A stretch of 61,704 nucleotides of DNA from Carcharhinus longimanus (taxonomy: Eukaryota), in contig JASCQW010000119.1 in assembly GCA_030264375.1 (NCBI GenBank), positions 6,700,277-6,761,980 on the forward strand, in the 5' to 3' direction. The position numbers were made by a program, and so were the translations under genes. Under the pieces are notes generated by a model. The model saw only the letters and a list, made by a program, of their open reading frames with translations, did no database searches and was not told the DNA's origin. The first letter of the stretch is position 1; the number at the start of each line of letters is the position of its first letter. Positions 1,690 through 60,360 of the stretch are shown here, in pieces.

Positions 1690-2280
1690 CAAATTAGATC
1701 ACAGAACGCCCCCATTCATCCTATTACGCCTACGCTAGTCAAGAACGACTGTACCACTCTGCCCCTTTTTCCACGAGTTGACCAATAGCCTTGGATAATA
1801 GTGCAAGTGAATATCTAAATGTTTCACAGCAACTTTATTGCAGTGTTAGTGTAAGGCTGCTCGTGACACTATCAAATCAGCTTCAAATAAAACGTCTTCA
1901 TTGCTTGCAGGAGTTCCGAATCATCCATGTGCAGACAATTAGATTCTCACGGCCACCCCATACACGTGTAAAATGTTACTCGTAAGTGTTATATTACCCG
2001 TCATCCAGTTCAGAATTGTATGGCACTTAGTATTGACCCACTACCTCACTATTAATGAAAATTGTGCCTTCTCATTCACTATACCTAAATTAGTCATGGA
2101 GCCGGCTTCTCTATTGGACAAACTGATAGTTAACCTGTTTGTAAAAGATTTCAGTCTTTGCTTCAAAAAAGTATCTTTAAACCATGTGATGCTATACTTT
2201 GTCAAGGTTTCTATTCATCACGTAAGACAAAACGAAAAGAAAATGCTTATTTTGGTCCAGTGTTCCCACATCCGAGCAGT
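1690..2280 (-). mobile_element. Highly decayed CR1-type LINE 3' fragment
   Basis: Weak resemblance to antisense CR1 3' ends elsewhere in the window. Confidence 0.35.
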
Positions 2281-2606
2281 TTTAAATAATTTTTTAGCTT
2301 TCCCTGCCATTACGACGATTGATCTTTCATCGTGCAGAAGTATGCATGGATATAAATATAGAGATGTATGCAAATGTAGACATGAATTTCTATTAAAAGA
2401 AAAATGAAATTAATTTTGACAATTCATCTCGTAGAAGCTACAAAGCAGAACATAATTTTTCGAACTTTTTTTTCACTTAGTGCTTTCCTTCCATTAAATG
2501 CACTTTTGTCATTGATGTTTTACAATCCAGTTTATTGTAATTGTGCACACTATATCCTTAAAGGTGTCGCACAGAATGTATATTTCACTCTTAACAGATT
2601 GTATAG

Positions 2607-2692
2607 TTACATCACATAAGTGATACAGGTGCAAAACATGATTAAACATAAATACGCTTGCCAGATGATGGCGATAGCGAGATACTTTTTGT
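2607..2692 (-). CDS. Candidate terminal exon (D)[27 protein letters not shown] (hydrophobic tail)
   Basis: Strong acceptor ccttttcttcgctttag, in frame with the preceding microexon; TAA at 2607-2609; minus-strand AATAAA at 2531-2536. Confidence 0.45.
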
Positions 2693-32337: not shown

Positions 32338-32378
<41 letters not shown>

Positions 32379-35300
32379 GCCATTATTAAGTACAAACTTG
32401 TTTTGTATAACTTGCTTCACGCAAAATTGACAAGCAATCGCATCTAACATTGCATTAAAGATACATTTACGGAGAACGAGGGGAATCTATTTTGCCGTAA
32501 CTTCAATGTTGCCAATGTTGGATTTGCTGGGACGCAAGTAAAAATGCTTTGGAAGTTCGGACTTGAGAGGTATGGTGGGGTGTATGTGGCGGGGTAATTT
32601 CCCAGAATTGCAAACATTCTACCGACAGTTGAACTGCATTGCAAATAATGCGGCAATGCAACTAGTCACTGGTGTAGTTGGATAGTTCTTCTATAGTTGC
32701 GCAGATACATACGAAGGAAATGGTAAAAGGAAACGTTTTTGAATCTATAGGGAACAATTATAAAGACCGAGAATGGCAAGACAATAACTATTCTTATTTT
32801 TTTTCTCAAATTACTGATCACAAGATTCCGGTGACAACTACTTCAAAACACACCAAGCTGCATGTTCCCCGCCGGTTGACACCACGAGAATTTGCGAACT
32901 CATGGTTCTCCGCAAATCTATGCTTTTAGTAAAGATGTTTGCATGTTCCCTGACCAGACAACGACCTTTGAACATTGCTTGTTTACGCCAACGAACATAT
33001 GAAAAATAAGCGTGGCGCTCGTGCCTCGACCAGAAGTCAACTGCTCAATTAGCTGCGCGGCATCTTTTTTTGCATTGCCTAAGCACGCCTGGTGTTCGGT
33101 TTTTTTTAGTGCAATTAGCAGGAGACGATAAATACCCCGGGAACTGTTCTGTATTTGGAATGAGTTCATGTCTGGTACCTAAATCATTAGACCAACATGA
33201 TGGATTTAAAGAAAACAGNNNNNNNNNNNNNNNNNNNNNNNNNNNNNNNNNNNNNNNNNNNNNNNNNNNNNNNNNNNNNNNNNNNNNNNNNNNNNNNNNN
33301 NNNNNNNNNNNNNNNNNNNNNNNNNNNNNNNTGTTGGTCACAAAAAAAGAGTCGACAGTGAGTTTAAGGAAAGTAAGAACTCTGTTATTAAAATAATCTT
33401 TCAATATTTTGATTATTTTTTAGCACACCAAATCTGTTAGTGCGTTCAATTTCACAATTTTAACGGGATTGCATAGTCGAAATTTGAAGTACCAGATGTA
33501 TGGCTGATCTGCCATCGAATAAAATTCATTGGCATCATTGTTTTTCTTCACAAGCGGAGGAACTGCAACATCCAATCATACAGTGTGGCCTAAACGTCGT
33601 GATACAGAATTGGACAGTTCAGCCCATTGCAACTTCCAGGAAAATAACACAAAAAGTCAGTTATTTACTTTCAGCTCAATTAAATACTTAAATACTACAG
33701 AACAGCACGACTTAGATCTTAACTGGGATCAGCGCTTCATTCCCAAACAGCTGTTTAAGCTGTGAATCGCGGAAATCCACAGATATCTGGCTGACACTAA
33801 TTGTTCTTTCGTCTATATTCTAATCCACCTACTAACCACAGAAAACCAATAGCTTCCTGCAATTGACTCTTGAGCTATGGGAAAACATTTTTTTTCTATT
33901 TCTGCCATCAACGGTTCTCCTACTATTCGCAAACGAATATGTATCACCTCCCTAAATTCCATTCCAAAAAAGCATCGATAATCCCAAACTCTTTTGATAT
34001 CTGTAACTTCCAACTCCGGGACAGTCCGTATAAAACTGCAATGCAATCTCTCCAGAAGAGGTACACCTCCTTGTCATGTGCTGATCAGAATTGTGCCTTG
34101 ATACACGTTAGAATTTGTAACTTCCAACATGTTTGATCTGAGATAAAGCAAAACACTGAAATACTGGAAATCTCAAACAAAAACAGAAAATGCTGGAAAG
34201 TCTCAACTTTGACAAAAGGCAATCAAGCCTCAAAACTAAGGCTCTATTCTCTGTCCACAGATGCTGTGAGACGTGGAAGATTTCCTGTATTGTTATTTTT
34301 TTTGCATGTTATTTCTAAGCCTAAATACTGCTAATGTGTTCAACAATCTTCTTCACTTTCAGCAAACAGGCATCGTGACACTTTTCGGACAATTGTTCAG
34401 CTGCAAACATTGCTGGATGACAATATGAAGCAGAGTGAAAATGAACAATGAGAAGTATTAATCATGATTATCTTCATTTTTTTACCGCTCTGTATCAGTT
34501 CTTGTTTCATTTTTTCATTTTCTGTCATACAGAAGCAGACATGAAACATTAGGTATTAAAATAGAAATTTCAGGTAATTCACGACAAAACAAAAACGGAT
34601 ATCTAACATCTTCAGATGATGTTGAGTCGAAGATTTTCATGAGGAACACATTAATTTGAATAATCTTATTGTGCTAAATGTGCTGTTTCATTTGCAGGTC
34701 ATTTTTTAAATTCCAAATTAGTGGCGAGATATTTGGTTCGTGTTTCTTATCTACATTGCCCAATAACTTTAATCCACGAAAAAAAAGATTCAGTACACGG
34801 AAATGAACAGATCTTCCCCCCACCCCGTTTATTCCTAATAAAACTTTTAAGGCCATTTGGAGTCTTGTTTTTTGCTACCTTATTGACATTAAATAGGTGA
34901 GCAAACATTCATTAGTGGCAGTTGGGGTATGGAAGGGATTATTAATGACATTTAAACATCAATATTTATTTTGTATTTATCATTTAAATGACAGCTGCAG
35001 CTTTNNNNNNNNNNNNNNNNNNNNNNNNNNNNNNNNNNNNNNNNNNNNNNNNNNNNNNNNNNNNNNNNNNNNNNNNNNNNNNNNNNNNNNNNNNNNNNNN
35101 NNNNGGCTGTGGGAGTGTGGGTGATGGGGGGGGGGGGGGGATGGAGTTTAAAAATTGGCAAATCATGTTGCAGCCTTATAGCACCTTAGTTAGAACGTGC
35201 CTGGAATATAGTATTCAATTCTGGTCGCCGCCCTACTGGAAGGGTGTGGAGGTTTTGGAGAGGGTACAGAAAAGGATTAGAACGATGCTGTCTCGTATGG

Positions 35301-38300
35301 AAGACGATATTAGCTATAGGGAGAGTTTTCACAAACCTGTTTTGTTCTCACTCGATCAATGGAATAGTGATAGAAGTCTACAAGAACATGAAGGACATGG
35401 ACTGAGTGGATAGTTTTTTTCCCAGGGTAGGAGATCCAGTTACTAGAGAGCATAGGTTTAAGCTGTGAGAGGCGATATTTCAAGATGTGCGAGACATTTT
35501 TTTTACACAAAGAAAGTTGGGTGCCTGGGACTCGCTGCCGAGGGAGTTAGTGGATCAGATGCGATAGTGAAATTTCAGGGTCATTATGACAATTTCAAAA
35601 GTAGGATGGGAATAGAGGGATATGGTCCGCAGAAGAGTAGGTGGTCTTAGGTCAATCGGCAGCATGGGTATTTCAGGTTCCGAAGGCTGGAGGTCCTCTC
35701 CCTGTGTTGTAATTTCCCCTGTCTTTTGCTCTTTGTTTTTGTACATCGTTTGGCCTGAGTTTATAAGGAGAAAAGAAGTGAAGCTGTCTTTTAATGATCA
35801 TGTTTCATTTTTTCCTCCTAGGAATGATGTGTTGCGACGTTGTTGTTTGTAAAATTATCTTTTAAAAGGATGATGCCTGTTGTATTTAGAGTTGTCTGTT
35901 TTCTGTAAAGTACATGAACCCAGAGAGCTTGGAGTGAAACATTGACATCAGGAGGCCAGGTTGAAGTATTGCCAAGACAACAGGCTTAAACAATATATCC
36001 TGGTTTAAACTGTACTAACGGCAGCCTATCAGATTTGAGGTTGATGTTTTTGTAACCTGATGTTGATGTGACATAAGATGTAACAAAGAGATATTTCAGC
36101 TCAAGAGACAAAAATAACTGGTCTCTGTTATCAACTACTCTCTTTGCCACAATTAATTTATTTTAGAGCAAAACTCATATGAATTGAAAACATATTGAAG
36201 GAAGCCAAAGATACCATGCAGAAGAAACAAGAATGACATTAGAATATCTCTGGATGTAAAATCTGATTATATGTTTAGTGTGGTTGTAAATAATCTACTC
36301 CTTGCGAAAAAGTGGATTTGTACTGATCTAAACAGCATTCTATTTGAATAGCGCTTTATGTGGTATGTTAATTGTTTAGTCAACCTGTTCAGTGTTAGTT
36401 AAATAAAAAAAGTGTTACTTGTATGTTTTACAGCTAAAGTTTCATGTAGTTATTTTGAGCTGATCACCAAAAGTTGCTGAAGAGCAGATCACACTACTTC
36501 TCACTCACGTTTAAAAGCATATAAAGTAACATCCTCTCCTCTAAGTGGTTACATGAGAGCGGTGGGTCAATCTCCCGTTTGTACCAATACGGAAATTGTC
36601 GGGTCAGTAAACGACGGTGGGGGGAATTTATTTGTTGAGCCAGATGAGGCAGGCGAGGTCCCTAACGAGTACATTGCATCCGTATTCACAAAGGAGAACA
36701 ATGAGGTGGATGGTAAGTGTAGAACTGAGGTTGTTATCATTGGAAGACGTTTTGAGATGAAAAGGAAGGAGATACTGAATGTTTTAAAAAATGAGGGGGT
36801 GAGGGGTATTTACAGTCAAATAGGATCTATTCCAGAATACTGAGAGTGAGGCGGGAAAAATCTGTTGAGGACTTGGGCAACATTTTTGTATCCTTTTTAG
36901 TCACGGGTGAACGACCAGAAGATTTCAGAGCAGCAAACATATACAAGACAGACGAGGAAATCCGGGAAATTCCGGACCTTTGAGTCTTACACCAGTGATG
37001 GGGAACTGAATTGGACAGATTCTTTCGGACAGGATGTGCAAGCGTCCAGAAGTGAAAAGGCTTAATCGAGGCAGGCAGCAAGGTTTTCTGGAGGGGAGGT
37101 CGTGATGCATTAACGTGGCTGATGCATTTGAGGAAGTGAGAAGAAACAATGACCAGTACAGGGCTGTGGATGCTGCATGCATGGGTTTTCGTACGGCCTT
37201 CCATCAGGCGCATGGCAGCTGATACAGAAAGTGAAGCAATATGGGATCCGTGTTGAGCTGGTAAGATGGATACAAAACTCGTTTGTATTTTGAAAGCAGA
37301 CAGTCTCAGTGCAAGGGTAGTTTTCCGAATGGAGGTCTTTGACAAACCGTCTTCCAAAATGATCACTGCTGGAGATTATGTTGCTTGTGATCACGTACAT
37401 AAATTATTCAGAAGTAGTCTCATTAGCAAATGTATGTAGCCTGATTAGCAAATTTGCAGACAACACAAAACTTGGGTGAGTAGCGGAAAGTGAGAATGAC
37501 TTGTAGAGGATTCAGTAAGATATATTCGGGTGGAAAACTGACTAGAAATATAGCAGATGGAGTTTCACCCGGACAAATGAACGGTTTTGCGATTTGGAAG
37601 CCTTATTGCAGAATGAAAGTATGCAGTGAATTGTGGAACCCTTACAAATAATACAGATGGATCGAGGCCGACAGATCCACATTTCCAGAGAGTATATCAG
37701 CTGAGGTACAGGTGGTACCTCAGCTGAGCATGTTGACCAAAATGGCACATTGATTGCAACGTGATGAATATCGGTAAATCGATAGATGCGCTCTTCTTGG
37801 AGGTAATCATTTATGTCAGACATATATGACATAAATATTAAACTTTCCCTTTCCAGTTCACGTCGAAATACAGTCCAACCCTTCCTCAAAGAGTCTTAGA
37901 TCGCTTAACATCTCAGCAATGGTGAGGCGTTTTGAATATTCTGCAACAAACCTCATTTTCAACTTGGGACTCACAGGGATTCGTTGATGAAAGAGCTGAT
38001 GTTGTTTGGATCTAACCATTTCGAAGAGGATTGTCAACAAGGGATGTGTGGAGGCAATTCAGAATGACCTGTAGCAATCTCAATCATCTCTACATACTTA
38101 GTTTGTGCCATGAATTGCTCCAGTCAAAGTAAAACTTTACAACTGGGCTCCATAGATATATGATTTTCGATGCATGGTTGAGTTGAGAATCAGTCAATTT
38201 TGGGGTTGTTAGCGTGAACGCTTTTCAACAGAACTCTTGGATTCAGCTCTTTTTCTCCTTGTTTGGACAATGATAACATTATTGGCCCCTGGAAGATGCA

Positions 38301-41300
38301 ACTCAATGTCAGTCGGTTGATTATTAATTAATAAATGATTACTGTAAGTTGAGTTTATGAAAGTCCCCATCAACTTGCTGAGAACCGAGAATTAAACAAT
38401 TGTGTTATAGTTTGGGATGCGTTTTTTTTTTCCACTGAAATGCCATAATTATTCTCCACAAAGTCTTCTAATGTTCCGGATACGATGGAAAAAAATAAAC
38501 TTGCCTAATGTTGCAGCTAAGTCTGGAGGAGTGGTCATCAATAATGATGCCGGAAAGTTCTCAATTGCCGTCACATTTGAGTTATCTAGTGCCTCCAGTT
38601 TTATCTTCAATTAACGTAGACTTATTCAAATTTGCCCCGCTATATCTGCAATTATTATGGGAATTCAGATCACTATTCGAATTATATCTGTCTTTATCAT
38701 ACATTTCTAACGTTTTAGTCTCTTCAACTTTAGATTCAGAAGAAAGATCATGACTAACGTACTCTGTTCATCGTTTGCTTATATGGGAACATTAAACTGA
38801 TTGTTAGAAATACGATTGTTAGAAATACGATTGTAATAAAATGCTGAGCGATTATCTAACTGCAACCGTCATCCTATTACACATGACAACATCATTCATA
38901 CTACTGAAATAATTTCCCTTCTACGGGATCCAATAATTGAACAGAAATGTAATCAAAATTTGATGCATACTAAGCAAATCTAACGCATAACAGTGCACGG
39001 TATTTCTTGCATATCTGAAAAGCATTTTGCGCAAAGAAAAAAATCAAAATTTGGAAAAAAAAAACAGATTGTTGTACATGCTTGTCAGAACTATCATGGC
39101 ATTTGTAACGATTGTTGTGAAATCAAGTACGGCACTGTCCACTGGAGGGGAGGAGGGCCCACTTCACATTGTGGAAACATAAAATCCCCACAGTACAGAG
39201 AAGGCCATTCGACACTTCGATTCTACGGCGACCATGATCCCATACAGGTCCTATCCCCGTAACCCCATTTACTCTGCCAGTCCCCCTGACACTAAGGAGC
39301 AATTTAGCATGCCCGATTAACCTAACCCACATATCTTCGGACTGTGGCAGGAAACCGGAGCACCCGGAGGCAATCGACGCAAACAAATTGTAAACGTCAC
39401 ACAGGCAGTGACTCAAGCCAGGAATTGAACCTCGAACCCTGGCATTTTGTGGCAGCAGTGCTAACCGATGCGCCACAATGCCGCTTATAACTTTCTCCTT
39501 TTTTGAGTTGATGTTTCGTAAAGGAGTGAAATTCATTCCTCTATTGCAACATTGCTATGCACATAAAAATGGTGTATTGTTGATATGTACTACCGTATCT
39601 TGAGGTAGAAAATACTCAAAATAAAATAGTTACCCAATTGGCATTTAATCAGGTCAGTTTCTAGGGAAACAAGTGTGAAATAATTAGAAACATTATAGAT
39701 AAAAAAAAAACTGGAGGACTGCGATTTCAAATTTTCGAGAGAAACACATCTGTTGCCCGCGCAGTCAAAAATAAAACATGTTTGCCGTGGAGAATCCTGT
39801 CATTCAATTTGCACTTAGTTCAAAAATGGTTAGAGGGATTGAACAAGGAAAATGCATAGAAAAGAGCAGGAGACCTAGACGGGAAAAGGATGGAGGCACG
39901 CTGGTGGTGGATGCTGGGTGAAAAGCTCTTAGAGAGTCTCTGCAGGTTATTGGGACGGATCAGCCTACTTCGGCGCACTAGTTATTCTATGGATCCAAGG
40001 TCATGCAAAAATNNNNNNNNNNNNNNNNNNNNNNNNNNNNNNNNNNNNNNNNNNNNNNNNNNNNNNNNNNNNNNNNNNNNNNNNNNNNNNNNNNNNNNNN
40101 NNNNNNNNNNNNTGTAGTTCGTGTAATCAGCGCACGTTTCAACTTCAGACAATGTTTTATTATTTGAAAAACACCTGCGTGCCGATGGACGATCTGATTT
40201 TTTCCCCAAATTCTTGAGTCTCAATACTGCAATTTCAAATTGTCCGCCCATTAATTCGAACGTCAAAACGGGGGGAAATTCAAACAATCTTATGCACATT
40301 GTCTTCGTATTAAAATTAATTAAAATGAGTGTATATAAACGAACATCATGAATCAGATAAGAAAACAATGCAGAAGTAGTAAAAAATCTAATGAGCGTTC
40401 GTAAATTGCATTGGTCAACTGCAGTGGAAAACTCCAATGATTGGCAAAGTATTGCCTTCAGCAGATATGCTCTCGTTTCATTATTGAAAAAAAGTGATAG
40501 CGTTATGCGAGTGCAGTCACACCCTCGATTTTGTTCACCAACAGCGCTATAATGGAGAATCAGACAGTTTTTTTTTCTGTTCCTTTTCGGGGCGACTGTA
40601 AAACGTTTGTTTACATCATTATTATAGCCGGAAATGCTACAAACTTGTGTCTGGACCATACTCCATGCTTGAATGTAGCAAGGCAACATCATCAGCACCA
40701 AGCAAATATCCCTGGGCGCCGGCGTCAATAATTCGAACATTTCTAACATTTGTAATCGGGACCAAGTTTAGTTGAATATTACCGGAACTGTGCTTAAAAA
40801 AAAACAAACGGGCAACGAAGCAGAAACAAACTTTCACCGCGTGTTTGGGCATTTTGCCCTTTTCAGCTAACTATACGTGAGGGTCCTGGACCCCAGATAT
40901 ATTTTGCAGCCAGATTGGGNNNNNNNNNNNNNNNNNNNNNNNNNNNNNNNNNNNNNNNNNNNNNNNNNNNNNNNNNNNNNNNNNNNNNNNNNNNNNNNNN
41001 NNNNNNNNNNNNNNNNNNNAGCCAGATTGGGCATCCAGTTTGTTGCTAACATAGAGACGATGGCATGGTTAAACCAACAGAAACTGCGAAAATAAATTCC
41101 AAATATTTTATCAAGACAAGCTTTATTCGTTAAACAGTTTAAGAATCTCTAACAAAATTAGCTTAAAGGTTAAAACAAAAGGGCGGCGAGGACAATTTGG
41201 GCCGAAGGGCCTGTTTCCATCCTCTAAACTTCTATGATTCTAGAATGAAGCATCACAAATTATAACAGTCGAACAATGGTTTGAAGAAAATGAAATGTAT

Positions 41301-44300
41301 CAATTTAAATTGTTAACTTAACACAGTCTCAATTCCAAAGAAACAATTGTCCACCTAAGATCAACTGACATTTTCAATACAGTTAACAAGCACAACCAGA
41401 TCGATAATATTGATAGATTGTGGAGTAGACTTTCGAATGCTTTTGGCGCATTTTTTTTTTCATTTCAAGTCGCGTAAGTTTAAACTGCTGCTACGTATCT
41501 GATGTCATAATAGCCGAAAGGACTTTCACCCCTTCTGATAAAGTTACTTCAAACTATTTAAGTAAATCAAATTCGGTAATACAACTTGCTTGCCCCGCCT
41601 TCCCAATGCAGCCTTCCAATTGAATAATTTGACTTTATAACCGCAGTGAAGTTGCTAGAATCCACGTGTACTCCTTCGGAACCGTTTGGCCCCAACGAGT
41701 GTGTCCAATTGAGTTGCAATGAAAAACAAAATGTAACCCTCGTAAATCTTTTCCACATTCACTTTTCTTCATGAGGCAAACATATATCCGAGGAAAACTC
41801 ATTTTCGTTGACCATATGTTTGCTTTTTTTTACCAGTTTGATCATTTACAGATTGAAATTTACGTCCGAATCCAAACTTTATTTTACAAACTAATTTGAA
41901 AGCATCGGCCTTTTCGCTGCCGATTCGACAGTGCGCACCATTCATATTTTAAGTTGAGTTTTCTTTATTTGGTGAAGTGATTTTTAGATGCCTCCAAAAA
42001 TAACGGTGTATCATTCCAGATATTTTACGGATCATTCCCACCTATCAATGTCAGTTTATTCATGTGTTCAAAATTTGTGTACGTCTGACGTGGTTCCTCC
42101 CTCAGACTTTTCATATTCAGACTCCAGGTTTCTGGAACTAGTTCATACGCAGTCGTGTTTTATTTTCAAGCTCTTAAGAAGCCTTCTGTCACTTAAGTCA
42201 CAATTTATTTTTTCAACTACTTTGTCAATAGAAATGAAACAGAATTATCTTTCCTTCGCAAAAAACCTTGGAATTTCTTGAATGAATTTAAAACTATCCC
42301 GAATAGGGGTTTGCTGAATCACGTGTTAATTCCTCCTGTGGACAGAAGGGCGATAGAAAATGGTGATTTGTAAAATGCTCTGGGACAATTGGGCAAGAAC
42401 TAAAACGACAGGCTGCAGTTTAAAGACAGAGACAAACAGGCTGCAACCCAGACGAGTGAATATACAGGATATGGATGATCCCCAAGATGAAAGAGACGTC
42501 ATTGTCACACTGGGTTGTTCCATCTCCAGAATAAAAGACTCTTTCTGTTAACACTGGGTTGTGTACCAGTCATAAGGGCTCCATGACCAGTTCTTTAGGG
42601 GGGAGGTATGTGACCTATGTGCCCCGAACAACTACAGACATGGCCGTTGTGGAACACCCGGAGATCGGCGTGACAGTGCGTGATTGGACTTTTATCGATC
42701 ACGGGGATCATGTCCTGATCGAATGATTGGCAATGGCCAAATGGGGCGTGAAACCCAATGGAGTATAAAGAATGCTGCGCAACAAGGACACTCTCTCTCT
42801 CTCTGACCCCAAGAACGAGCTACAACAATGGTGACCATTGCCAGCGACGAGCAGCACGATGAGAGCGACCACACCCGAGAAGAAAGGAAGGGACACCAGA
42901 TCCAGAGTGCCAGGCCACATCGAAGGGCCAGACTGTGCAGAGAATGACTGTTAACGATGTACAGGTAAAGGTCAATATCTGCTTGGGCACTTGTCACTCA
43001 CGCAATTGTAAGTCAAGTTGTGGCATTGGACTTGAATTCTAGTATTTTCTGTAAGATAACATTGTTAGTCGGGTGATTATTAATTGTGTGCGTTTAAATA
43101 AATATTGCTTGTACTAATAAGACCTCTACTCGAAGTTATTTGTCCACCGCATAAGGGTTAAAGCAGACTGCGCGGCAGGCAAAACCCCTCACTTTCATCG
43201 TTACATTTCTCAGCATTGCCATTTTCCTCTAACATCATGTTAGCTACGACTCCCACCAACGTTTTTTGCAGATGCACCTTAGAAAGCATATTTTCTGGTT
43301 GTATCAAGCTTTTCATGACTCCTGTTCTGCCAAAGACCGCAAGGAACTACAAAACTCGTGACTGTAGCCCAAACCATCACGGAAACCAGTCTCCCATCCA
43401 TTTGCTTTGTCAACGCTTTCTGCTGTCTCGGCAAAGCAGCCCGTATACTTAAGGAGCCTACGCCCCTGGACATTCTCTCTTCACCTTCTTCCTTCGGGAA
43501 AAGTATACAAACGTCTGAGGTCACGTCCCAACCGACTCAAGAAACGCTTCTTTCTTGCTGCTGTTAGACTTTTGAGTCAATTGACTTTGCACTAAGTTGA
43601 TCTTTCTCTGCACCCTAGCTATGTAACACTACATCCTGCACTCTCTCGCTAGGATTGCTATGTTGTGTCTGTATAGCGTGCCAGAAACAATACTTTGCAC
43701 TTTAGTTTAATACATGTGACAATGTAAAATCAAATCAAATCAAAATCGAATCAACAACATTTTAAGTACCATTTCCCTCAGTTCAAAACTCCATCTCACT
43801 ATCTTCCTTTTGTTTCTAATTAAGTTGCCTCTTTTTCATATCGAATTGTCGTAAATGTCCATGATTCAGACTAGGTTGCTTGCAATTCAAGGGCTGGTCT
43901 ATCACTAAATTCGTCTATGGATTCCGCGTCCATTCAGTAACAGTTAATTTTCGCTTGCTCGTCAAGTGTAAGCTTGTTTTGCAAAGCACTCAGTGACCTC
44001 CACCACACTCATAAATGCGACAGTCACTTGAACACATATTCTCCAATGTTTTCCTTATCTGGCCTAACCAAATACGACACATGTAAGAAGGAACCAACCT
44101 TTATTCACGCACTGTCTTTGAGTTCAACATTCCAAAAGCAAACTACTTTTCCCGGAAAGAAAGTACAAAAATAACCTACTATTCTGAAGATCGCAACATT
44201 TGTTCTGCACCCATTAGCAAAGCGGAGGGCATTATTAGTTCGGAACCAATTGAAAATCGTCATGAAGATTCATCTAACACTCCTTCAGTGCTGCAAATTC

Positions 44301-47075
44301 TCGCTGCTGAGATTGTGTATTCCTCGCTTATGTCGTGAACTTACAACACAATACTTTCTGACACAATACGGGTTCTGAGCCCAAGTCCAAACTGTTTTAT
44401 CAATTGGTTTATATTCACTCACCCTAACTATCCGAGTTTTTGGCGGAAGGGATACTTCTGTAAACGACATTCGCCTCGCTTCTCAGAATTATTATTGTAC
44501 CTCTAGTTATAGATAGAACAAAATAGTTGCTTCATATCATTTTTGGTGTTTGATTACAGCTTACTTATTCCAATGTCTCCACTGCATGCTTACATGAATG
44601 ACACGTGTACCCCAAAAAGAAAGTTTTTTTTATTATTTGAACATTTGTGGTATTTGCTTTAAAGGATGTATTGTTTTATTCTAAGATCTGAATGTTTCAC
44701 CATTACGTTTGCATGAGCTGTTCATGTAAGTTCGATTTTTTTTTTAGTTAGCATTCAGAAGCATTTCCATGTCCAAAGTCAAGTTAGAATATGCCGAATT
44801 GACTGAATATGTTATCGATTATATTGCTCTGTGAACAGTTGGCTGGTTGGGCCACATTTTCTGTTTTTTTTAAAGAGAGTTATGACCTTGGAATTACATT
44901 AAATTACTTAATTCTAAAAGAGATAATACCAACTCATTTGCCTGGCAGCTCTTTTGCAGCCAACATTACTACTCACCTGTATCATTCAGAAGTTGATTCA
45001 GATCAGCAACATTTTACATGAAGAAAATCGAACAGTGCTTTCGTGCTGAATTTGCAAAGCAGATAAATGCCGATGTAACATTAGAGGCACATCAACAGGC
45101 AAAAGCGTGTCTGGAGACTTGTGAATGTCGTCAAGTAATTGTGCATTTCTCTCGATTTATGTAATCATTTTGATTAACTTCCCACAATCTTTTGCATACA
45201 CTTTATAGTATTGCTTTTCCAGTAGCAATCTGTGTATTTACCTGAAGAGGGAGCAATCATTTATTTTCAGGTAAGTAATGCCTATGCTTTTCTCAGTGAA
45301 CTTACAGAAGAATAGTCATGCACTCACGGCCACTTGTTTTGCAGGCTTTCAGCTCTGAGATTACAAACAATAAGAATTCAAAAGTTATCCGAAAAACAGA
45401 ACAAGTGTTTTCAAGTGTTACTGTGTCTGAGGGAGGCTTTGCTTACCATTTTGACAGGCCTTCAATTTATCTTCTGTAATTGTAGAAACAAAAATAGCAT
45501 TGGGGCAGTGTCATATTATTTCGAGGTAAACAATGAGTTTCAATCCCTGCTTTGCATAGGTCGTTGCATAACCGCTACAATATCAAACAGTATGAGCATT
45601 ACATACAGATGAATAATTTGTCATGCAACACAAGTGCAGTTGTCAACATAAAACATTTCACGACCCTTGTTTAATACTGTACTACGTTGTATCAATAAGA
45701 TGATATTTTCTTTCTTGAAAGGGTGTAATATGATCTTAAATGCCGACATAGCATGTCAGGATAATCCATTAGGCAAATGAAAGAACAACTCAGACTGCAC
45801 AAATTTCGCCGCTACGTATTATCTTGAAATGAATTTTATTAATTCAGGACATTCGTCCTAACCACAAGCACAATATAACCTGCACTACAGGACAAGAAAA
45901 CGTATTGGAAAAGACGCGAAATTATTTCTGACCAAAATCTATACTGAGGTGAAAGAAGGAGAATTATTTAAATTTAACGTTTATCTATAAGTCAAAAATA
46001 GGTTAACATTCGCTCTGCAATTAAGTTACTTTGAAAGTACCCGAATTCAACACTTTGGCACCTGTACGGCTGTATTGATGGATAATTTAAAATGTCCAAT
46101 TCATCTCACCTGCACATTGACAATGGTATGAAACCGGAGGAAATCCATTGAGACACAGGGAACACATGCAAGCTTCGCACCGACAGTGACCAAAGGTTGG
46201 AATCGAACTTGGATACCTGGTGCTTTGAGGCAGCAGTGCTCACCGCTGAGCATAAATGCAGTTCTCTTTTTTTGATATGAAACGTTAAAAGCAAGAATGC
46301 CTACAACATGTAATTGTAAAGGCACTTCTTTTTTTCCTGGTTAAACGCTAGGGTGTTTGTAAAGAAGACAATAACCAACTATGGGATAGTTGTGCAGAGT
46401 AATAACGATTTCATAAGAATTAATATGATTGAAAGGTAAAATCAACAGGCAATTATGGTACAACCAAATTCGCAACATGTCCAAAAGTTAACTGTGAGCT
46501 TATCTACGCACCTGCATCGATGAGGCGCATCAGCAGTTTGTTCCTTTCTGAAAGCGCATACATTATTTTTGAGATTAGAATACATCAACTTTTTGTAACA
46601 CATTGTATTTTATGTTCGTTCACAAAGGAAGGCAGCCAGACTGCCCAAAATTCCGGTGCCGCCTACATGTTCCATAATATTAATGCTTTGTTTGCCAATC
46701 AAGCCGTTTGTGTTCGAAACTCTGTAAATTTAGGCACGTTTTCCTTGGTACAAAAACGCGCTTCATGGACGTGTAAGAGACTCCAGGATGGGACGTGTAT
46801 CAAATGGTGCCAGGTTGCCGGATGTTCTGAATAGGCAGAAAGCATTTTAAAGTTAGAGGCTGAACAACCACAAGTCGTGGTACATATCGGAATTAACGAC
46901 GTAGGGAGGAAGAGTGACTACATACTGTAGCAGCAGTTTACAGGTTTAGAGAGAAAGATGAAAACAGGATCTATATGGTTGTAACCTCAGGATTACTCTC
47001 TGTACCACTTGTCAATGAAGCTAGAAATAGATAAATAGTACAATTCCAGCAGTAGCTAAACAGGTGGCAGGTGGT

Positions 47076-47114
<39 letters not shown>

Positions 47115-50100
47115 GGGGGTTTTTTGGTGGGGGGGAAGCGTTGGGTTCAGATATCTGCGTCACCGGGATCTCTTCTCAGGCATAAGGGACCTGTACAATA
47201 CGAATGTGTTGCATCTAAACTGGAAGGGCATAAACATTCTGGCCGAGAAATTTTCTACTGTGACACTGGAAGATTGAAATTAGTTTGGCAGGGGATGGGA
47301 GCAAAACCAAAGGTGATTTAACTGAAGGGGAACTAGAGAGTAGGGCCAGCGCTGGTAACACTCTGTGAAATATCTAGCAGGGTATGGTTAGCAATTAAAG
47401 AGGGACTTGTGGACTGCAGTACATTTGTTTTAATGCAAGAGTGTCACGGTAATGCAGATGAATTGAGACATTGGATTATTATAGAACATACAACACAGAA
47501 CAGTACAGCTCAGCACAGATCATTCGGACCCCGATGTTGTGCCGAGCTATGCCCAAACCCAAGATTAAGCTATCCCACTCCCTGTCATTATGGTGTGCTC
47601 CATGTGCCTATACAATAACGCTTGAAACTTGTTAAAGTGTCCGACTCCACTATCACAGCAAGGAGTCCATTCCACACACCAACCAATCCCTGAGTAAAGA
47701 ATCTACCACGGGCATCTCTCCTATACCTCCCACCATAAACCATATAGTTATGCCCCCTAGCAACAGTTACATCCACCCGAGGAAATAGTCTCTGAACGCC
47801 CACTCTATCTATCCCCCGACCATCGTATAAACCTCGATTACGTCGCCTCTCATCGTCCACCGTTCTGAAGAGAGAGAGAAAAAAAGACAGCTCCCTTAAC
47901 CGTTTCCAGATAAGGCCTACACTCCAGAACATACAGCATTCTGGTATATCTCATCTGCACTCCCTCCAATGCTTTTATATCCTTCTTACAGTGAGGTGAC
48001 CAGAACTGCACACAGTATTTCAAATGTGGTCTCACCAAGGTCCTCTATAGTTGCAGCATAACTGCATGGCTCTTAAACTCAAACCCACTCTTAATAATCA
48101 CTAACATACTATAAGCCGTCTTCACGGCTCTACCCACTTGAGTGGCAACCTTCAGAGATCTGTGGATATGGACCCCAAGATCTATCTGTTCCTCCACATT
48201 CCTTAGACCAGCCTTTGACCCAGTAATCCTCATTAAAATTGTCCTATCAAAATGAATCACCTCGCACTTGTCAGGGTAAAACTCTATCTGCCAATTTTCT
48301 GCCCAGCTCTGCATCTTATCAATGACTCTTTGAATCCTACAAGAGCCGTCTACCTTATCCACTACTCCACCAATCTTGGTGTCATCAGCAAATCAACTTA
48401 CCCACCAGTTACCCCCCTCTTCCATTCATTGATAAGGATCACTTTTAGCAGAGGACCCAGCTCTGATGCCTATGGTAAATCGTTGGTAACTGGCCTCCAG
48501 TCTGAAAATTTTCCCTCCACAACCACGCTTTGTATTCTATGAGACAGCCAGTTACTTATCCAATCGGCGAAATTTCCTGCTTTCCCACACCTCCTCACTT
48601 TCTTCATGAGCCTACCATGAGTGACCTTATCAAACACCATACTAAAATCCATATATACAACATCAACTGTTCTGCCTTAGTCTGCACATTTAGGTACTTC
48701 CTCAAATAATTCAATCACATTTGTGAGGCAGGACTTAGACCCCTCGCGAAACCGTGCTGATTATCCCACATTAAACTACATCATTCCAAATGGTGATAAA
48801 TCCTATCTCTCAGGGCCCTTTCCATTAACTTACCGACCACTGAAGTAAGACTAACTGTCCTATAATTATCTGGGTCATTCCTATTTCCTTTCTTGAAGAG
48901 TGGAGCAGCATTCACCACTCTGCAGTCTTCTGGCGCAATCCCCGTGGATAGTGAAGACCCAAAGATCAAAGCTAAAGGCTCACATTACTTGCCTCCCCTC
49001 CCCCAAAGTATCTTAGGATGCATCCCATCTGGCCTAGGGGACTTACCGACTCTCAGTTTTTTTTTTCAAAATTACGAACACATCTTCCCTCAGAACATCT
49101 ACCACCTCCATTCTATCAGCCTGTACCACGCACTCATCCTCAAAGCATGGTCACCTTCTTCAGTGAACACTGAGGAAAAGTATTCATTCAACACCTCGGC
49201 TCTCTCTTCTGACTCCATGCACAAGTTCCCACTACTATCATTCACTGAGCCTAACCTCACCCTTGTCATTCTTTTATTTCTCACATAAGAGTAAAAAGTC
49301 TTGTGGTTTTCCTTCAACTGACGCGCCAAGGAATTCCCATGCCCACTTCTAGCTCTCCTAAGCCATTTTAACTCATTCCTAGCTACCACGTAACCCTCAA
49401 GCGACCCAACTGACCCTTGTTCTTTTTTTTCTTCTTCCTTACATACACTTCCTTTTTCCTCTTGGCAAGACAGTCAGCATCGTTTGTGAACCATTCAAGC
49501 TCGCTTGATATTACTTTATTTTATGATGTTGTCGCTACTACAGTGATTTGGTAAAGGGAAGGGTATGATTGGTACCTTAACGTCCAAAGATGCAGATGCT
49601 TCAAGCAGGAGCGATGGGGGTGTCAAACGGTTGGGGAAGTGGCAATACTTGTTCAGGAGGACGTCATTTCTGTACTACGAGATGACACGTCGGAGGGCTC
49701 ATACAACAAAGTAATATGTGTAAAGCTCTGGAATAGGAGGGGTGCAGTCGCAATGTTTGCGGTTTACTATCGGCCACCCAACAGTCAGCAGGAAATAGGG
49801 GAACGGATATGAGGCAGATTTTGGCAAAGTGTAAAAGTAACAGATTTGCCGTTGTGAGAGATATTAAATTCTTCAATGTCGACTGAGACTCAATTAGTGC
49901 TAGAGCCACGGATGAGGCGAAATTGTAAGGAACATCCAGAAGGACTTCCTGAAACAATATGTAGATAGTCCACCTCGGGAACGGACCACATTGGACCTTG
50001 AACTGGGAAATGAGCCCGGCCAAGTAGTCGAGATGTTAATAGAGGAGCAGTTCGGGAAGTATGACCAAAATTCAGTAAGCTTTTATGCACTGATGGATAA

Positions 50101-53100
50101 AGATAAGTCAGTCCTCAAGTGAATGTGTGAAAGTGACAGGCGGCAAAGCAGACCAATATTAGGCAGGAACTGAAGAATGTGGATTGGTGTAGATGCTTGA
50201 GAGCAAATCAACATCTCAGATGAGGGGAGCTTTCAAGTCTATGTTGATAGGGATTCAGTGTAGGCACGCATCTATAAGGATGAAGGAAATATATAACACG
50301 TTTCCAGAATCATGGACAATGAAAGTTATGTGGGACCAGTCAAAGAGAGAAGGAAAGCACCTGTCAAAGCGAAGAGGTGGACAACACAAGAATCAAATAC
50401 AGAATGCAACGGATGTAGAAATGCACTTAAGCAATGATTAAGGAGGACTTAACGGTATCATGAAAAATCATTGGGCACCAGGGACTAAGGAAAATCCCAA
50501 AGATTCTTATACATATATAAATGCAAGAGGGTAGCCAAGAAGAGCGTTGGCCTAAAGAAGGGCATTGGAGGGAATCTATGCATGGAGCCAGAGGAAGTGG
50601 TTGCGCTATCAGATCAGTATTTGGCATCAGTATTCAACAAATCTAATGGCTTGGTGGATGCTGAGTCTGTGCGAGGTTGGGTGGTGAGGTCGGGTTATGT
50701 TAAGATTGAAACGGAGGAGGTACTGAGGTTCTTGAGAAAGATGAAGCTAGACAAGTCCCCAGGGCCTGATACGATATACCCTAGAAACTGAAATACGCAA
50801 GGGACGTAGTTGCGTGGGCCTTGAGAGAACTTCTTGTTTCCTAACTAGCTACAGAGGAAGTCCCTGATGATTGGAGTACAGCCAATGTTGTTCCTTTGCT
50901 GAAGACGGATAGCAGGATAATCCAGGTAAGTAGAGGCCGGCGAAGGTTATGTCAGCATAGGGAAGTAACAGGAGAAGATCCTTCGAGACAGGATTCACTC
51001 CCCCACTTGGAAATAAGTGGACATATGAATGGGAGGCAACATGGTTTTTCGTTGTCTCCTAACTTAATGGAGTTTTTCGAAGAAATGAAGAAGGTGATTG
51101 ATGAGGGTAGAGTAGTGGATGTTGTGGACATGGATATCAGTAACGAGGTTGACAAGATCCCTCATGGCAGACTGGTGCAGATGTAAGGTTGCACAAGATC
51201 TGCGGTGAGCTGCCAAGATGCACATGTAACTCTTTCGTTAATAAAAGAGAGTGGGAACACTTAAGAGTATTGATAGACATAGAGGTGTATTTGCAGAGGT
51301 ACACAGGTCTCTGAAGGTGGAAACACGCATGACTAAGGTAGTCAATGAAGCATACGACATGCTTGTCTTCATTGGCCGGGATATTGAGATCAAAACTTGG
51401 CAACTCATGTTACGGCTTTATATGAACTCATTTTGGCTGCACTTGGAATGTAGTGTTGAATTCGGCTCGCCAAACTACCAGAAGGATATGGAGGCTTTTG
51501 ATAGGGTTCGGAAAATACATACCAGCATGTTCCCCAGTATGGAGGGCATCAGCTATGGGGAGATGTCAGGATAAATTGGTTTGTTCTATGACGACGAGGG
51601 TTGTGTGGCTGCCTGATAGATTGGGTAGTCAGAAGTTTTTTTGACCGGGTGGAAGAGTCAATTACAGGAAGGAGGGGTGGGGAATGGGGTGGGGGGGGGG
51701 TGCAATGGTTTAAAGTGCGAGGGGCAAGGTTTAAATGAGATTTATGAGGCAAGTTGTTTACACAGAGGCTGGCGGATACCTGGAATTCGCTGCTGGGGGA
51801 AGCGGTGGGAACAGATGTGGTAGTGAATGTTAAAGGGCGTCCTGACAAAAACATGAATCGGATGGGAATAGAGGGATATGTTCTCCGGGACGAGACCGGT
51901 TTTCTGATAGGCAGCATGATTGTTGCAGGCGCGGGAGGCCGAACGCTGCAATTTTCTTTGTTCTCTGTTCTTCGTTCTTTGACTCACGGCACCAGAGAAA
52001 AACATCTACAGGTTGACAGCATGTTGAAGGTCATTGACATATTCGGCTGCATAGAGAGAAAAAAAAAACAAAGCAGTCAGATTTTCCTGCTCTCATTTTC
52101 AGCTCTGAATGTCATTTCACTTCTGTGGCATTTGCCTGCCTTCAATCAATGTCATAAGGATTTCCGTCTCACAAAACATGAACATGTTTTTAACAGCTTT
52201 GACAAAAGGGTCATCTGAATTCGAAAGGTGAGTTTTTTTTTCTCTTTATAGACGCTGCCAGACCTGTTGGGATTTTCCATCATTTCTCGTTAGGACTCAT
52301 ATTCCAGCATCCGCACTAATTTGCTTGTATAGCGTGTTTTTGATTATTTCTATACACAGAGAAATATTGTCCTCCAAGGTCAAACCAGCTCGTCAATAAT
52401 ATCACGAATATTTGTTGGCAAGTATATTGAAAACATCGGTCGCATTTTTGGAATGCATTTTTGGAAAGCTCAGACCTTTGCTCTGAGCACTGGGGACTTA
52501 AGGTAAGGGGAGATCAGAATATTTTAAACAAAATTTACTTTAGAATTAAATTGTTGTTCTTTAGTCTAAAATATTTTGCTGGCAAATTGTTTAATTTACG
52601 AACTGCTGGTGGAAAAAAAGACCCTTTAGATCCAAGTTGGAAACCAAGACCCCTCAGTGGACTTGCCAGCTGATTGATTTGGAGGAGTTGTGAGACCGGT
52701 CCAGACTACTTTATTTAGACATGGGAAACAAAGACTAAATAACATGATTGCGAGCGCCCTTTCACGGAACACATACTTTCTCTGAGTGCGTGGGGGGCAA
52801 GGTAAATGTGGGAGTTGAGAGAAGTCGGAGAGACACTCTTGTTTTGTCCTGTCTTTTTTGTTGTGTACACGGTTCAGTAGGAAGAGTTGCAGGTCACGGC
52901 AGAAGGGGAAAACATATTTCTGTCATATCATATTTCAACGGTATTTAATTTAGCAACGGAATAAAATAAAACGAAGTCATTAATGTAAATATGCTGGTCC
53001 ATGCTGCACTGTCGCAGCATCATGTGAGAGGTGATGGACCCCATTGTGGTTCCAAGGGATCACATCTGCAGCCAGAGTTGGTTGCTGGAAGAACGCCGGA

Positions 53101-56100
53101 TTAACGTTGATGAGCTGGAATCAGATTTTTAAACACTGCGGCGGATAACGGGGGAGAGGTGGGGGGTGGGGTGTGGGCGGGGGATGGGGGGCGTGGATAA
53201 TTACCTGGACAAGTAATTAAGTTATTTAGGAACTGTTCGTCAATAATAAAGGGTAATTTATCCTGTTCCGAATTGTTTCATCCTTATCTTGTCCCAATAA
53301 CGCTTAGTAAAATTACAAATGTTAACTTATCCATTTTTCATGATAATTATTGAATTGAATTTGTTCTTTTCTTTGTGGGCACAACTTGTCATGGTACCTT
53401 TCCACATTGCCTTGTCAATTATATTGTGAGGAAGTCATAGACTCGTATAGCTCAGGATAACCCCTTTGGCCCATCCAGACTGCAATCCAGAGATCATCAT
53501 TATTAACCTCATTACCTTATTNNNNNNNNNNNNNNNNNNNNNNNNNNNNNNNNNNNNNNNNNNNNNNNNNNNNNNNNNNNNNNNNNNNNNNNNNNNNNNN
53601 NNNNNNNNNNNNNNNNNNNNNNNNNNNNNNNNNNNNNNNNNNNNNNNNNNNNNNNNNNNNNNNNNNNNNNNNNNNNNNNNNNNNNNNNNNNNNNNNNNNN
53701 NNNNNNNNNNNNNNNNNNNNNNNNNNNNNNNNNNNNNNNNNNNNNNNNNNNNNNNNNNNNNNNNNNNNNNNNNNNNNNNNNNNNNNNNNNNNNNNNNNNN
53801 NNNNNNNNNNNNNNNNNNNNNNNNNNNNNNNNNNNNNNNNNNNNNNNNNNNNNNNNNNNNNNNNNNNNNNNNNNNNNNNNNNNNNNNNNNNNNNNNNNNN
53901 NNNNNNNNNNNNNNNNNNNNNNNNNNNNNNNNNNNNNNNNNNNNNNNNNNNNNNNNNNNNNNNNNNNNNNNNNNNNNNNNNNNNNNNNNNNNNNNNNNNN
54001 NNNNNNNNNNNNNCCCACGTGGATGCGAACGATATTGATAGAAAGGAAAATATTTCTCTTGAGGGGATGTGAAGAGTTTGATAAATAAGGTAATGCAGTT
54101 GATAATAATGATCTCTGGATTGCAGACTGGATGGGCCAAAGGAGTTATCCTGTGCTGCATGAGTCTATGACTCCCTGACAATATGACTGACATGGCAATG
54201 TGGAAATTTATCATGGCAAGTTGTTCCCACAAAGAAAAGAACACATTCAATTCAATATTTATCAAGGAAAATGGATACGTTAACGTACTCAATTCTACTA
54301 AGCGTTATTGGGACACGGCATGGATGAAAAAAAAAATCGGATTGGGATAAATTAACTGTGATATTATTGACGAACTGTTCCCGAATGTCTTATTTACTTG
54401 TCCAAGTTTTTTTCTTTACATTTTATCAGTAGTGCTATGAATTTACAAATACTCAGCAAGAGTCTGTTGAATGAAGACCGTTGGAGTTCAGAGGGACAAT
54501 CCTTCCTACTTTAATTTCATACTTGGAGAAAACATAAAGAATAACAGGAGCTGAGATGAGAGTGTCATCTCAAGCCATCAGGTCAGGTTTAGACAAAATA
54601 TGGCTTCAATTAACCGAGAAAGAAGTGGAAATCAATGCGATTCAGACGTAAACGGTCACTTAATTTGATTCTTAACTTGAACAAAACATCAAATATGCTC
54701 GATCCCTACGATCCCAATTCATCGCTGCAGAATCCCTGGCTTGATTACTCAGCCCATCCTTGGCTATCGCATCAGCTTTCTTCAATTGTTTCGTCAAACA
54801 CAGGGATGTACGCTAATTGTAGCACAACGATGAGCGACATTCTTTTCCTCTCAGACAGGGCCGAATTATATATTATGACTCAAACGATGGTAAGCGATAG
54901 ATGAGAACTGTCACATGCCACTTATACAATTGCCCCATTCTATAAGAAAGAAACTAAATACTCCCAACTGAGGTTCAAATGACCAATGCTGACTACAAAA
55001 CATAAACATCCTGTGGCCAAAACTGAGAAGAATTTGAAGAAGGCTAACTGCATGCATACAATGTCTAATGACATCAGTCCGATTTTAGAATTACAGCTGA
55101 TTTTTTTTTATTTATCCGATTCCTGAATCTGGCTACTGAACGTATAATTTGTTACTTATTTGTTGAATTACTAAATTTAGATTCAATTGTTGGAAATCGA
55201 TCAACTGGACTACAACATTCCAGATGCCTGGAATCGCAGGCAACAATGTCTTCGGGAAGGTGCATTGCATAGTTTTGAAATGCTGCATAGGCTAGCTAGT
55301 CAGTTAAAGAATTTACCCATGAAAGTGAATGTACCCAGGCTTATCAGGAAATTGTATTGAACATAAATTTCACGTTATGCCACATCTGATTTCCCATTTG
55401 ATTGAAAGAAAAAGGGCAGCAGTGATAACGGTTGTATTACTGTATTCAATTGTGCAAACTGCCGCATACTGACCGAAACTGTCTGTAATCTTTGAAGAAT
55501 CTAACAAGAGGGACATATATGTCAGAGAGACTCGGTTCATAACAAATGCCACGATGCAGCAGTACATACTATTGTTCAATTCAGCCTGCATAAGTAAATA
55601 CATTTGTTCAAAAACACAAGATTTTAGTCGTCCAGCTCACCAACAACCTGTCATGCCTCCTCATCCCCAGCACCCGCACCACCCAACTCCCCCACCCCCC
55701 CAGCCCATGCCACCATTATAGTTAAGACAGCCCACCAGTGCCTCTACTTTCTCAGGAGATTAAGAAAATTTGGCATGTCAGCTACAACTCTAACTAACCT
55801 TTACAGATGCACACAAGTTGAATCACGACTTGGCATGGCTCCTGGTCTGTCCAGAATCGCAACGCATCGCAGTAGCTCAACCTATTCTGCACACAAGCAT
55901 CCCATCCATTGACTCTGTCTACACTTCTGTCTGCCTCGGCAAAGCAGTCAGCATAATTAAGGATCCGAAGCACCCGGGACATTCTCTCCTCCATCTTCTT
56001 CCTTAGGGAAAAAGATACAAGAAAAACAATGAGATCACGTACTAACCGACTCAAGAGCAGCTTCTTCCCTGCTGCTGTCAGACTTTTGAGTGGACTTACC

Positions 56101-59532: not shown

Positions 59533-60139
59533 CTGTAAAATTACGAAGAAAATTATTATTACCTAGCAAACACAGTGTAATAAAGATTGCATATTTAGGA
59601 TGCAATCAGTCTCAGCCCCTCTGCAGCGTAAAACTCCTGCATTTACAATTGTACCAATTACCAACGAGTTCTACACCTCTATGTCCGCGTTGAACCAATC
59701 TGAGCAATTGATGTCCAATATTTATTTTATGGTCTGTTTGTGAGCACAGTCTCACAGGAAGTTAAATGGTCCAATTTTACAACATTAGAAAAAAAGTAAA
59801 TTAAACAACAAAAAAAAACAATATTGCAGTTGGTTCTGTATGACTCTTTGCAGGAATCGCTAAATAAGTGGGTAGTACGCAGTTAAGGACACGTACTATA
59901 GATTTTTTTACAAACGAATTCAATGTAAAAGTCGGTGATGTGTAACAGCCGTGCAGTAGTTTGTTTCGATTAGAGTTCACATGTTTGCCTTTGTTTCTGT
60001 GAGATTCTGAAGTATTATAAAGTGTCAAATACAGGGAATGTGCTTTACCCGCACGGCAAATTTTAAAAATAACAGGTTTCACCTTTAACAGTGATTTGAG
60101 TCAATTTGAACTTTGGAGTTAATGAAGATTGTAATTTTC

Positions 60140-60360
60140 CAACTCAAAGAAGCAATTGCATCTATTTCACTGAATGATTTTAAGGCAGTTGTGTCGAGGG
60201 TTTTGATTAGCAAGTCAGTGGCGAGTAATATTGCAGAGCTGAGTGGGAAAACGAAGAGACATTGGTGTCGGTCCGGAAACTGATCAGCCCAAAATTTCTG
60301 AATGGTGCATGAAGATCTGAAAGCTAAACAGCCTGCTTTTGTTTCTAAGTACTCTGTTCG
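60140..60360 (+). mobile_element. Decayed CR1 3' end
   Basis: tttaaggcag...ttttgattagcaag...gatcagcc...gaatggtgc...cagcctgcttttgtttcta. Confidence 0.55.

Follow-up and report, generated by a model that had tools for sequence, protein, structure and literature searches.

Introduction

According to the available excerpts of PMC5938342 and PMC8813856, chicken BG has one 21-nt exon per heptad and 27-37 exons, placed behind an IgV domain and a transmembrane (TM) segment and without B30.2, and exon number differs between genes and between alleles. In the same excerpts, butyrophilins are arranged as IgV-IgC-TM with few heptads. The butyrophilins and the heptad-exon tails of chicken BG are the closest known kinds to the shark gene analyzed here. 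As in BG, a long coiled-coil tail is predicted from many tiny split-codon exons, with the heptad crossing exon junctions. Neither of the features that mark BG, a tail of 21-nt heptad exons and the lack of B30.2, was observed: at least 167 exons are of 27 or 36 nt, 21-nt exons occur only at the 5' side, a B30.2 exon is terminal, and no Ig or TM exon was found in the searches described below. As in butyrophilins (BTN/BTNL/ERMAP), small phase-1 exons precede a B30.2 domain held in a single terminal exon, although the shark gene has vastly more of them. In the butyrophilin of this same genome (C81:100.45 Mb), two 27-nt phase-1 exons stand between a 120-nt TM exon and the B30.2 exon, so the building block of the array pre-exists. 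TRIM-B30.2 proteins likewise bear a coiled coil upstream of B30.2, and one paralogue of the shark gene lies in a TRIM/BTN cluster on C81, but no RING or B-box was found at the locus, and typical TRIM coils are many times shorter than the one predicted here. Enterophilins, mammalian cytoplasmic proteins expressed in enterocytes, combine a rod of about 43 heptads with B30.2 without Ig or RING, and would resemble the shark gene in a long heptad rod plus B30.2.

The window is a stretch of 61,704 nt (C119:6700277-6761980) from the 2.68-Gb genome of Carcharhinus longimanus. Extended coordinates carry the window numbering along the contig, the C119 position being the value plus 6,700,276. Judged from the DNA sequence, it is probable that the window lies inside one very large cartilaginous-fish gene, encoding a long coiled-coil rod with a C-terminal B30.2/SPRY head and produced by repeated duplication and loss of microexons. 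That this is one gene is suggested by the single SPRY exon and the single strand, the junctions being predicted.

Results

Extent of the microexon array

Positions 1..61704 lie wholly inside a minus-strand microexon array that continues past both ends of the window, covering ~720 kb at C119 about 6.33-7.05 Mb (extended 348,345 to about -370,480). The strict list counts 99 exons of 27 nt and 68 of 36 nt, all in phase 1, which sum to at least 167 microexons and at least 1,707 aa of coding sequence; the looser list holds 110 and 72, respectively. These counts are lower bounds, because N gaps take up 86 kb of the array. The exon score cut-off was chosen to let in two plus-strand hits per exon length (11.8 for 27 nt). 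Repeat-borne hits were removed before the final counts, two from the strict list (48071 in the window and extended 155890) and six from the loose list; the phase-1 frame test, residue-position counts and period test given below still include both strict-list exons. For exons selected purely by splice signals, the phase-1 frame is open in 72/72 (27 nt) and 49/54 (36 nt), against 36/40 and 10/25 in the other two frames, and the opposite (plus) strand supplied just 6 and 5 candidates.

A few exons of 15, 18, 24 and 42 nt are scattered among those of 27 and 36 nt. Those of 15 nt (extended -157,997, -177,462, -184,870, -227,664 and -257,974) are like the first five residues of the 27-nt type and yield 17-aa spacings (heptad plus decad) and a 35-aa spacing. 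On the 5' side of the array, single-heptad, phase-1 candidates of 21 nt were located at about C119:7.07-7.18 Mb (extended 368,488-482,339); the one at extended 396541 sits in a repeat. Beyond this zone there are strong orphan exon candidates at extended 508372, 519876 and 534314, and on the plus strand a 111-nt candidate with good splice sites and a coil-like peptide end (extended 557,433-557,543), which may belong to a neighbouring gene. At the other end, the last two microexons, both of 27 nt, precede a single terminal phase-1 exon of about 170 codons (C119:6328407-6328921, extended -371,355), which encodes B30.2/SPRY. No coding exon found but this last one is longer than about 14 codons.

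The B30.2 exon has matches in five public runs from two studies, none recorded as RNA and hence uninformative on expression, and no exon-exon joint was found in the public contigs compared with the window. A loose 36-nt exon pattern was uninformative. A reading of the array as two tandem genes was rejected: a 39-nt "exon" seen twice proved to be a dispersed repeat with 3,574 genome matches, and the two array halves, aligned exon by exon, reached a score of 36 where the null mean was 35.6.

Exons within the window

The exons and candidates of the window, a region less regular than the 3' half of the array, are collected in Table 1. Six exons quoted in an earlier note on this DNA (beginning at 46547, 45473, 39660, 34521, 21771 and 19517) have ag/gt splice sites, phase 1 and the translations given there. 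In a related organism, exon 46547 carries the conservative replacements I>V and D>E and a single silent substitution, and the differences listed include none in its splice dinucleotides.

Table 1. Exons and exon candidates of the minus-strand array in the window (window numbering)
Feature	Positions	Strand	Score
27-nt phase-1 exon AQYIERSKD	59506..59532	-	17.9
36-nt phase-1 exon, 12-aa peptide	58370..58405	-	21.0
27-nt exon EKSPHFPPT, prolines, helix break likely	57487..57513	-	12.8
36-nt exon, first of the earlier note, ag/gtgcgt, 12-aa peptide	46512..46547	-	22.6
27-nt exon EDKLKACQN, second of the earlier note, ag/gtaagc	45447..45473	-	30.5
Probable 27-nt exon ELKACKTSG, ctcag/gtgagt	45328..45354	-	10.7, borderline
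36-nt exon-like stretch, third of the earlier note, AA acceptor, probably skipped	44977..45012	-	21.3
27-nt exon ETDLIKCQL	39634..39660	-	11.2, borderline
36-nt exon, 12-aa peptide	34486..34521	-	24.2
Weak 27-nt candidate GVNWSEIFQ	32259..32285	-	6.5, under cut-off
27-nt exon DAKVEDAVS	29260..29286	-	21.4
27-nt exon DPGKIIEEM, contains proline	27436..27462	-	13.6
27-nt exon VKSLVENDK	23660..23686	-	18.4
24-nt exon candidate DSFKKCLA	22272..22295	-	
36-nt exon, 12-aa peptide	21736..21771	-	29.4
27-nt exon EVELRASNA	19491..19517	-	26.7
27-nt exon ELEKYVKDD	18879..18905	-	17.3
27-nt exon ASKLSHCET	8933..8959	-	21.6
27-nt exon ELQALREKL	2936..2962	-	22.4

Three details of the note require revision. 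The stretch 45012-44977 had been taken as a live exon; its acceptor reads tgtaaa/AT, that is, AA instead of AG. Its donor (gtgagt) is good and its body scores 21.3, against a median of 19.5 for live 36-nt exons and 11.0 for the best plus-strand one-mismatch control, making it the top-scoring acceptor-broken 36-nt exon of the array. A public contig, possibly from the assembly's own sample, is identical over 44600-46239 including the AA acceptor; for the contig of a related organism, the differences listed include a change at 45015 and none at 45013, the shared AA being deduced from row order. Since a broken acceptor is combined with an exon-like body score, this stretch is probably a former exon that is skipped, and the 14-aa junction of 45473 to 45012 that had been quoted is probably not made. 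Within the interval 46547-44977, a probable 27-nt exon at 45354 was also overlooked between the quoted second and third exons. Its score is reached by 6/2,926 plus-strand candidates in 941 kb and by 6/2,000 shuffles, and the 92-nt intron before it resembles the 91-nt intron of a like upstream pair (extended 116735/116617). Leu occupies position 4 in exon 45473, as in 27-nt exons placed directly after one of 36 nt, and position 2 in exon 45354, as in exons from the interior of 27-nt runs. The likely path predicted here is 36-27-27-27-36 (46547, 45473, 45354, 39660, 34521) with a 39-aa spacing, and not 36-27-36. Finally, DSFKKCLA is encoded by 24 nt and not by 27 nt.

Between 45327 and 45013 no exon remnant was found, and a 27-nt candidate at 45241 was discarded for its poor donor (score -7.3). 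The 36-nt candidate at 48071 is false, sitting in a decayed LINE fragment. Decayed LINE (reverse-transcriptase-like) fragments, which we take to be such from their motifs, lie at 47,500-51,600 and 35,000-37,400. A high-copy short repeat with at least dozens of other genome matches occupies 45,950-46,260 in the intron after exon 46547, and two copies of a dispersed repeat, 70-84% alike, stand 12.5 kb apart at 43,353-43,754 and 55,861-56,281.

Coiled-coil register across the array

It can be observed that L/I/V/M/F/Y occupy positions 2, 5, 9 and 12 of the 36-nt exons in 75, 62, 77 and 43%, and position 4 of the 27-nt exons in 72%. A 36+27 unit gives a 3-4-3-4-3-4 hydrophobic spacing over 21 aa, in which every third d position is polar or Cys. 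Position 7 of the 27-nt exon belongs to the core, yet it holds Lys in 45/100, Cys in 11/100 and an aliphatic or aromatic residue in 5%, which departs from a clean leucine zipper. Cys also stands at 19% of position 5 in 36-nt exons. When the exons are joined, the hydrophobic period peaks at 3.55 residues, with a power reached by 0/300 order shuffles and 2/300 within-length shuffles, and 21 aa is the top autocorrelation lag both in the array and in a catshark relative. Taken over the whole array, the 3-4 hydrophobic spacing of a coiled coil is continuous across the predicted junctions. The heptad crossing splice junctions that had been read from a quoted 33-aa triple thus holds for the array as a whole but not for that triple alone, where 6/10 a/d positions are L/I/V/M/F, a count matched by 10% of 20,000 residue shuffles and so not beyond chance.

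The spacings from one 36-nt exon to the next (n=67) are 21 aa in 30 cases, 30 aa in 10, 12 aa in 8, 39 aa in 7 and 17 aa in 3; those of 35, 47 and 48 aa occur twice each, with three singles. The 21-aa module of 36+27 nt proposed earlier is therefore the commonest spacing and not the only unit. Odd runs of 27-nt exons number 43/67, against a shuffle null mean of 25.0, a count reached by 0/10,000 shuffles. Even runs make up 24/67; gaps and missed exons explain part of them, but some are gap-free, so either the register has local breaks or exons escaped detection. A distinct pattern that fits a stutter marks the exons in the middle of 27-27-27 runs (n = 9). In the available excerpt of PMC4786415, an 18-aa insert is a stutter (18/5) absorbed by coiled coils, and a shift of two residues breaks the helix.

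In-silico removal of a pair from 15 five-exon units left the heptad contrast unimpaired (0.50 to 0.52), while removal of one 27 or one 36 from the same units lowered it to 0.35 and 0.23. The supposed difference between losing a pair and losing a single exon stands in this respect, but gap-free single losses exist. These predictions support the 36+27 = 21 aa combination as the basic in-register module of a long predicted coiled coil. Prolines are present in the exons at 57513 and 27462. For a catshark relative, single-sequence structure prediction gave a weak model (mean pLDDT 55), with long helices and B30.2 not folded.

Exon duplication and loss

Identity between nearest-neighbour exons has a median of 61%, hence most duplications are old. 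The sole exon duplication seen with intron homology is a triplicated 1.0-1.3-kb unit (extended -9,453 to -12,191, intron identity 63-66%), which contains a 36-nt exon and gives three consecutive 36-nt exons. A weak 27-nt candidate in this unit (score 4.7) has intact splice sites in the third copy and broken ones in the other two. A chimaera model also contains three near-identical 12-aa blocks. Broken exons were identified at 45012 and at extended 79664, -100357 and -144083. The last of these is a lost 27, and a 27-27 run at -136530 contains a possible broken 36, the two lying one pair apart; the losses near -136,000 to -144,000, and that at 45012, could represent compensation, each as a single case. 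The median intron is about 3 kb. The distinct internal isoform gaps in three annotated relatives, which are predicted models, measure 6, 7, 9, 9 and 9 aa, so that 0/5 equal 21 aa. Overall, the evidence on the unit of duplication and loss is mixed.

The B30.2 domain and its family

The terminal exon matches Pfam SPRY (E 6.9e-12), with PRY not detected by Pfam, and is the only SPRY match within 941 kb. The best solved-structure match of the subfamily B30.2 profile is BTN3A1 (E 1e-33, positions 2-164). Its identity to shark BTN/TRIM domains is about 25-32%, and the domain sits on a separate branch. In a midpoint-rooted tree of 44 rows picked by likeness to the query, 16 subfamily rows split from 28 TRIM/BTN/pyrin-type rows with support of 100/98, and B30.2 grouping thus places the gene apart from the TRIM/BTN rows. 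The closest relative among the rows is a paralogue of the same genome, at 58%. Among 98 matches of 136 candidates, paralogous domains lie on C119 at 8.53, 9.02, 9.09, 10.68 and 11.29 Mb with 38-58% identity, and a sixth paralogue (C81:94.27 Mb, 39%) is inside a B30.2/B-box/BTN-IgV cluster at C81 about 85-102 Mb. With the present gene, the C119 paralogues make up a cluster of six B30.2 genes at C119:6.3-11.3 Mb. Motifs of the 27-nt exons lie upstream of each gene at a distance of some 0.26-0.5 Mb, on the correct strand for all five C119 paralogues. All 12/12 genome matches of an exon-motif pattern fall on C119, six of which had built the pattern, with 0 for the control; in another search 4/7 fall there.

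All named relatives belong to cartilaginous fishes, namely skate, electric ray, catshark, basking shark and chimaera. The RefSeq members XP_042192744, XP_038671249, XP_038672306, XP_069775384, XP_055510696 and XP_078422387 share the B30.2 subfamily, and the five coil-bearing ones parsed have 9/12-aa blocks, but they are predicted, mostly short and named by similarity alone (TRIM39-like, A33-like). The spliced RefSeq models of 945 aa (catshark) and 1,697 aa (chimaera) parse as 9/12-aa blocks with scores of 146.7 and 169.8 against shuffle means of -6.3 and -21.5. Most annotated relatives have 221-945 aa and begin within the coil. The start of the model XP_038668997 (residues about 55-119) matches repeat-derived DNA near the array, and this annotation therefore looks faulty. 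In the tarpon protein XP_036374758 (Megalops cyprinoides), which is possibly a parallel invention, a signal-like start is combined with a long coiled coil and with PRY-SPRY, and no RING family was found. A word-indexed protein search scored 0/676 candidates. A profile search of proteins returned mostly ordinary TRIM/BTN plus one further protein (P0169), which as a query retrieved only itself among 255 candidates. The family seems undescribed: no description was found in titles and abstract starts, with few subscription journals, and supplements of shark genome or transcriptome studies may list it.

Search for further domains

No Ig, RING or B-box was found in 941 kb, of which about 120 kb is N, with profiles that detect controls at E down to 1e-70. 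Upstream, nothing reliable was found for a signal peptide, TM, Ig, RING or B-box exon: four hydrophobic candidates were not convincing as a TM exon, and a signal-like hit was rejected as lying in a repeat. Of the matches to a shark BTN IgV query (36 from 72 candidates), none lies past 2.2 Mb on C119. No Ig near the locus was seen among the genome-wide candidates scored (a further search scored 150/928), nor any B-box on C119 between 2.6 and 43 Mb among the 150 of 277 candidates scored. Six subfamily proteins scanned, and P0169 and P0152, contained no Ig or RING family. A cluster of V-set Ig exons is located at C119:1.1-3.6 Mb, a few Mb from the array. The IgV domain of a Mustelus asterias butyrophilin matches this genome at 92%. 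With 6 N-glycan sites seen and 9 expected, there is no enrichment.

Discussion

The single-gene reading implies a rod of at least about 1,700 aa of alpha-helical coiled coil, which at a rise of 0.15 nm per residue would be roughly 250 nm long. Genes of the butyrophilin type carry small symmetric phase-1 exons ahead of B30.2, and the rod may have grown as exons of this kind were duplicated in tandem and lost again and again. Each of them would preserve the frame, and selection on helix geometry would favour certain sums, with 36+27 = 21 aa (three heptads) as the base and 27+27 = 18 aa (a stutter) as a common insert. The chains would presumably oligomerise, the rod holding two or more B30.2 heads far from an anchor, and, like the tails of butyrophilin and BG, it would putatively serve as a spacer or scaffold. 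Rod length would be set mainly over evolutionary time; splicing may vary it, not necessarily by pairs. As for location, we favour a free rod, with the cytoplasm as first choice, held tentatively and at slightly under even chances; secretion is a possibility that we favour less, and membrane anchoring appears unlikely.

Other explanations assign the rod a different use or place. The earlier note envisaged a splice-tuned ruler, in which cells co-skip 27+36 pairs to shorten the rod in register and single skips place kinks. Geometry permits this, as heptad contrast survives removal of pairs and falls with single exons (n = 15) and all exons are symmetric phase 1; the triplicated unit, where a 36-nt exon is accompanied by a weak 27-nt candidate decayed in two copies, also suits a pair, and clusters of long SPRY proteins include isoform numbers up to X51 (Chordata, a lead only, maybe teleost proteins). 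The isoform gaps of the predicted relatives, none of 21 aa, argue against it, as do introns of such length with no coupling mechanism found and the separate single losses at -144083 and -136530, and we regard the ruler as improbable. A bolder form, to which we likewise give a low probability, supposes that in cartilaginous fishes six giant genes clustered within 5 Mb follow a two-letter code of exon geometry (9+12 as pure heptads, 9+9 as a stutter, 12+12 as a stammer, a lone 9 as a break), where coupled splicing would set the length and flexibility of a B30.2-headed rod of at least 250 nm. A butyrophilin- or BG-like membrane protein, with Ig and TM exons further upstream or in gaps and a giant cytoplasmic tail, would agree with the 5' single-heptad exons, which resemble the BG tails in the available excerpt of PMC5938342, with BTN3A as the nearest solved B30.2 structure and with the paralogue in the C81 cluster. 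It is unlikely in view of the 941 kb free of Ig, RING and B-box matches, the relatives scanned, and the IgV query unmatched on C119 beyond 2.2 Mb.

A protein secreted to form a structural fibre or gel (of mucus, egg case, sperm matrix or similar), cross-linked through core Cys and with B30.2 as an assembly or adhesion head, is doubtful, while deserving more weight than the membrane protein. Cys at core positions of both exon types, the tarpon protein and the hydrophobic stretches with which skate and chimaera models start all point in this direction. However, such starts may be intron read-through, as inferred for one Logan ORF (P0005), the N-glycan count falls below expectation, and the upstream signal-like hit lies in a repeat. 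Cys is present in the cytoplasmic tails of BG as well, according to the available excerpt of PMC5938342. Alternatively, the array could be divided among several shorter genes or transcripts, or decay could be under way in its 5' part, to which the window belongs, so that no 1,700-aa chain would be made. The four broken exons, the short relatives starting inside the coil and the irregularity of the window are consistent with this. On the other side, the frame is open in 72/72 and 49/54 of the strong exons along the whole array, exon 46547 has only silent or conservative changes in a related organism, the chimaera model reaches 1,697 aa, a short catshark model has the repeat-like start of a faulty annotation, and the repeat that hinted at two genes is a dispersed element. 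We hold this alternative to be of small probability.

If the array is one gene, it would have at least 167 coding exons over 720-850 kb and would be among the most exon-rich vertebrate genes, for which titin and nebulin are the comparison. It is nearly invisible to standard annotation because its coding exons are tiny except the last, and its RefSeq relatives are mostly short models under misleading TRIM names. The at least six paralogues in this genome, together with the chimaera, skate, ray and shark relatives, constitute a data set on how register constrains exon duplication and loss. With its exons of 27 and 36 nt, the gene would add a new exon alphabet to the microexon tails of butyrophilins and BG.
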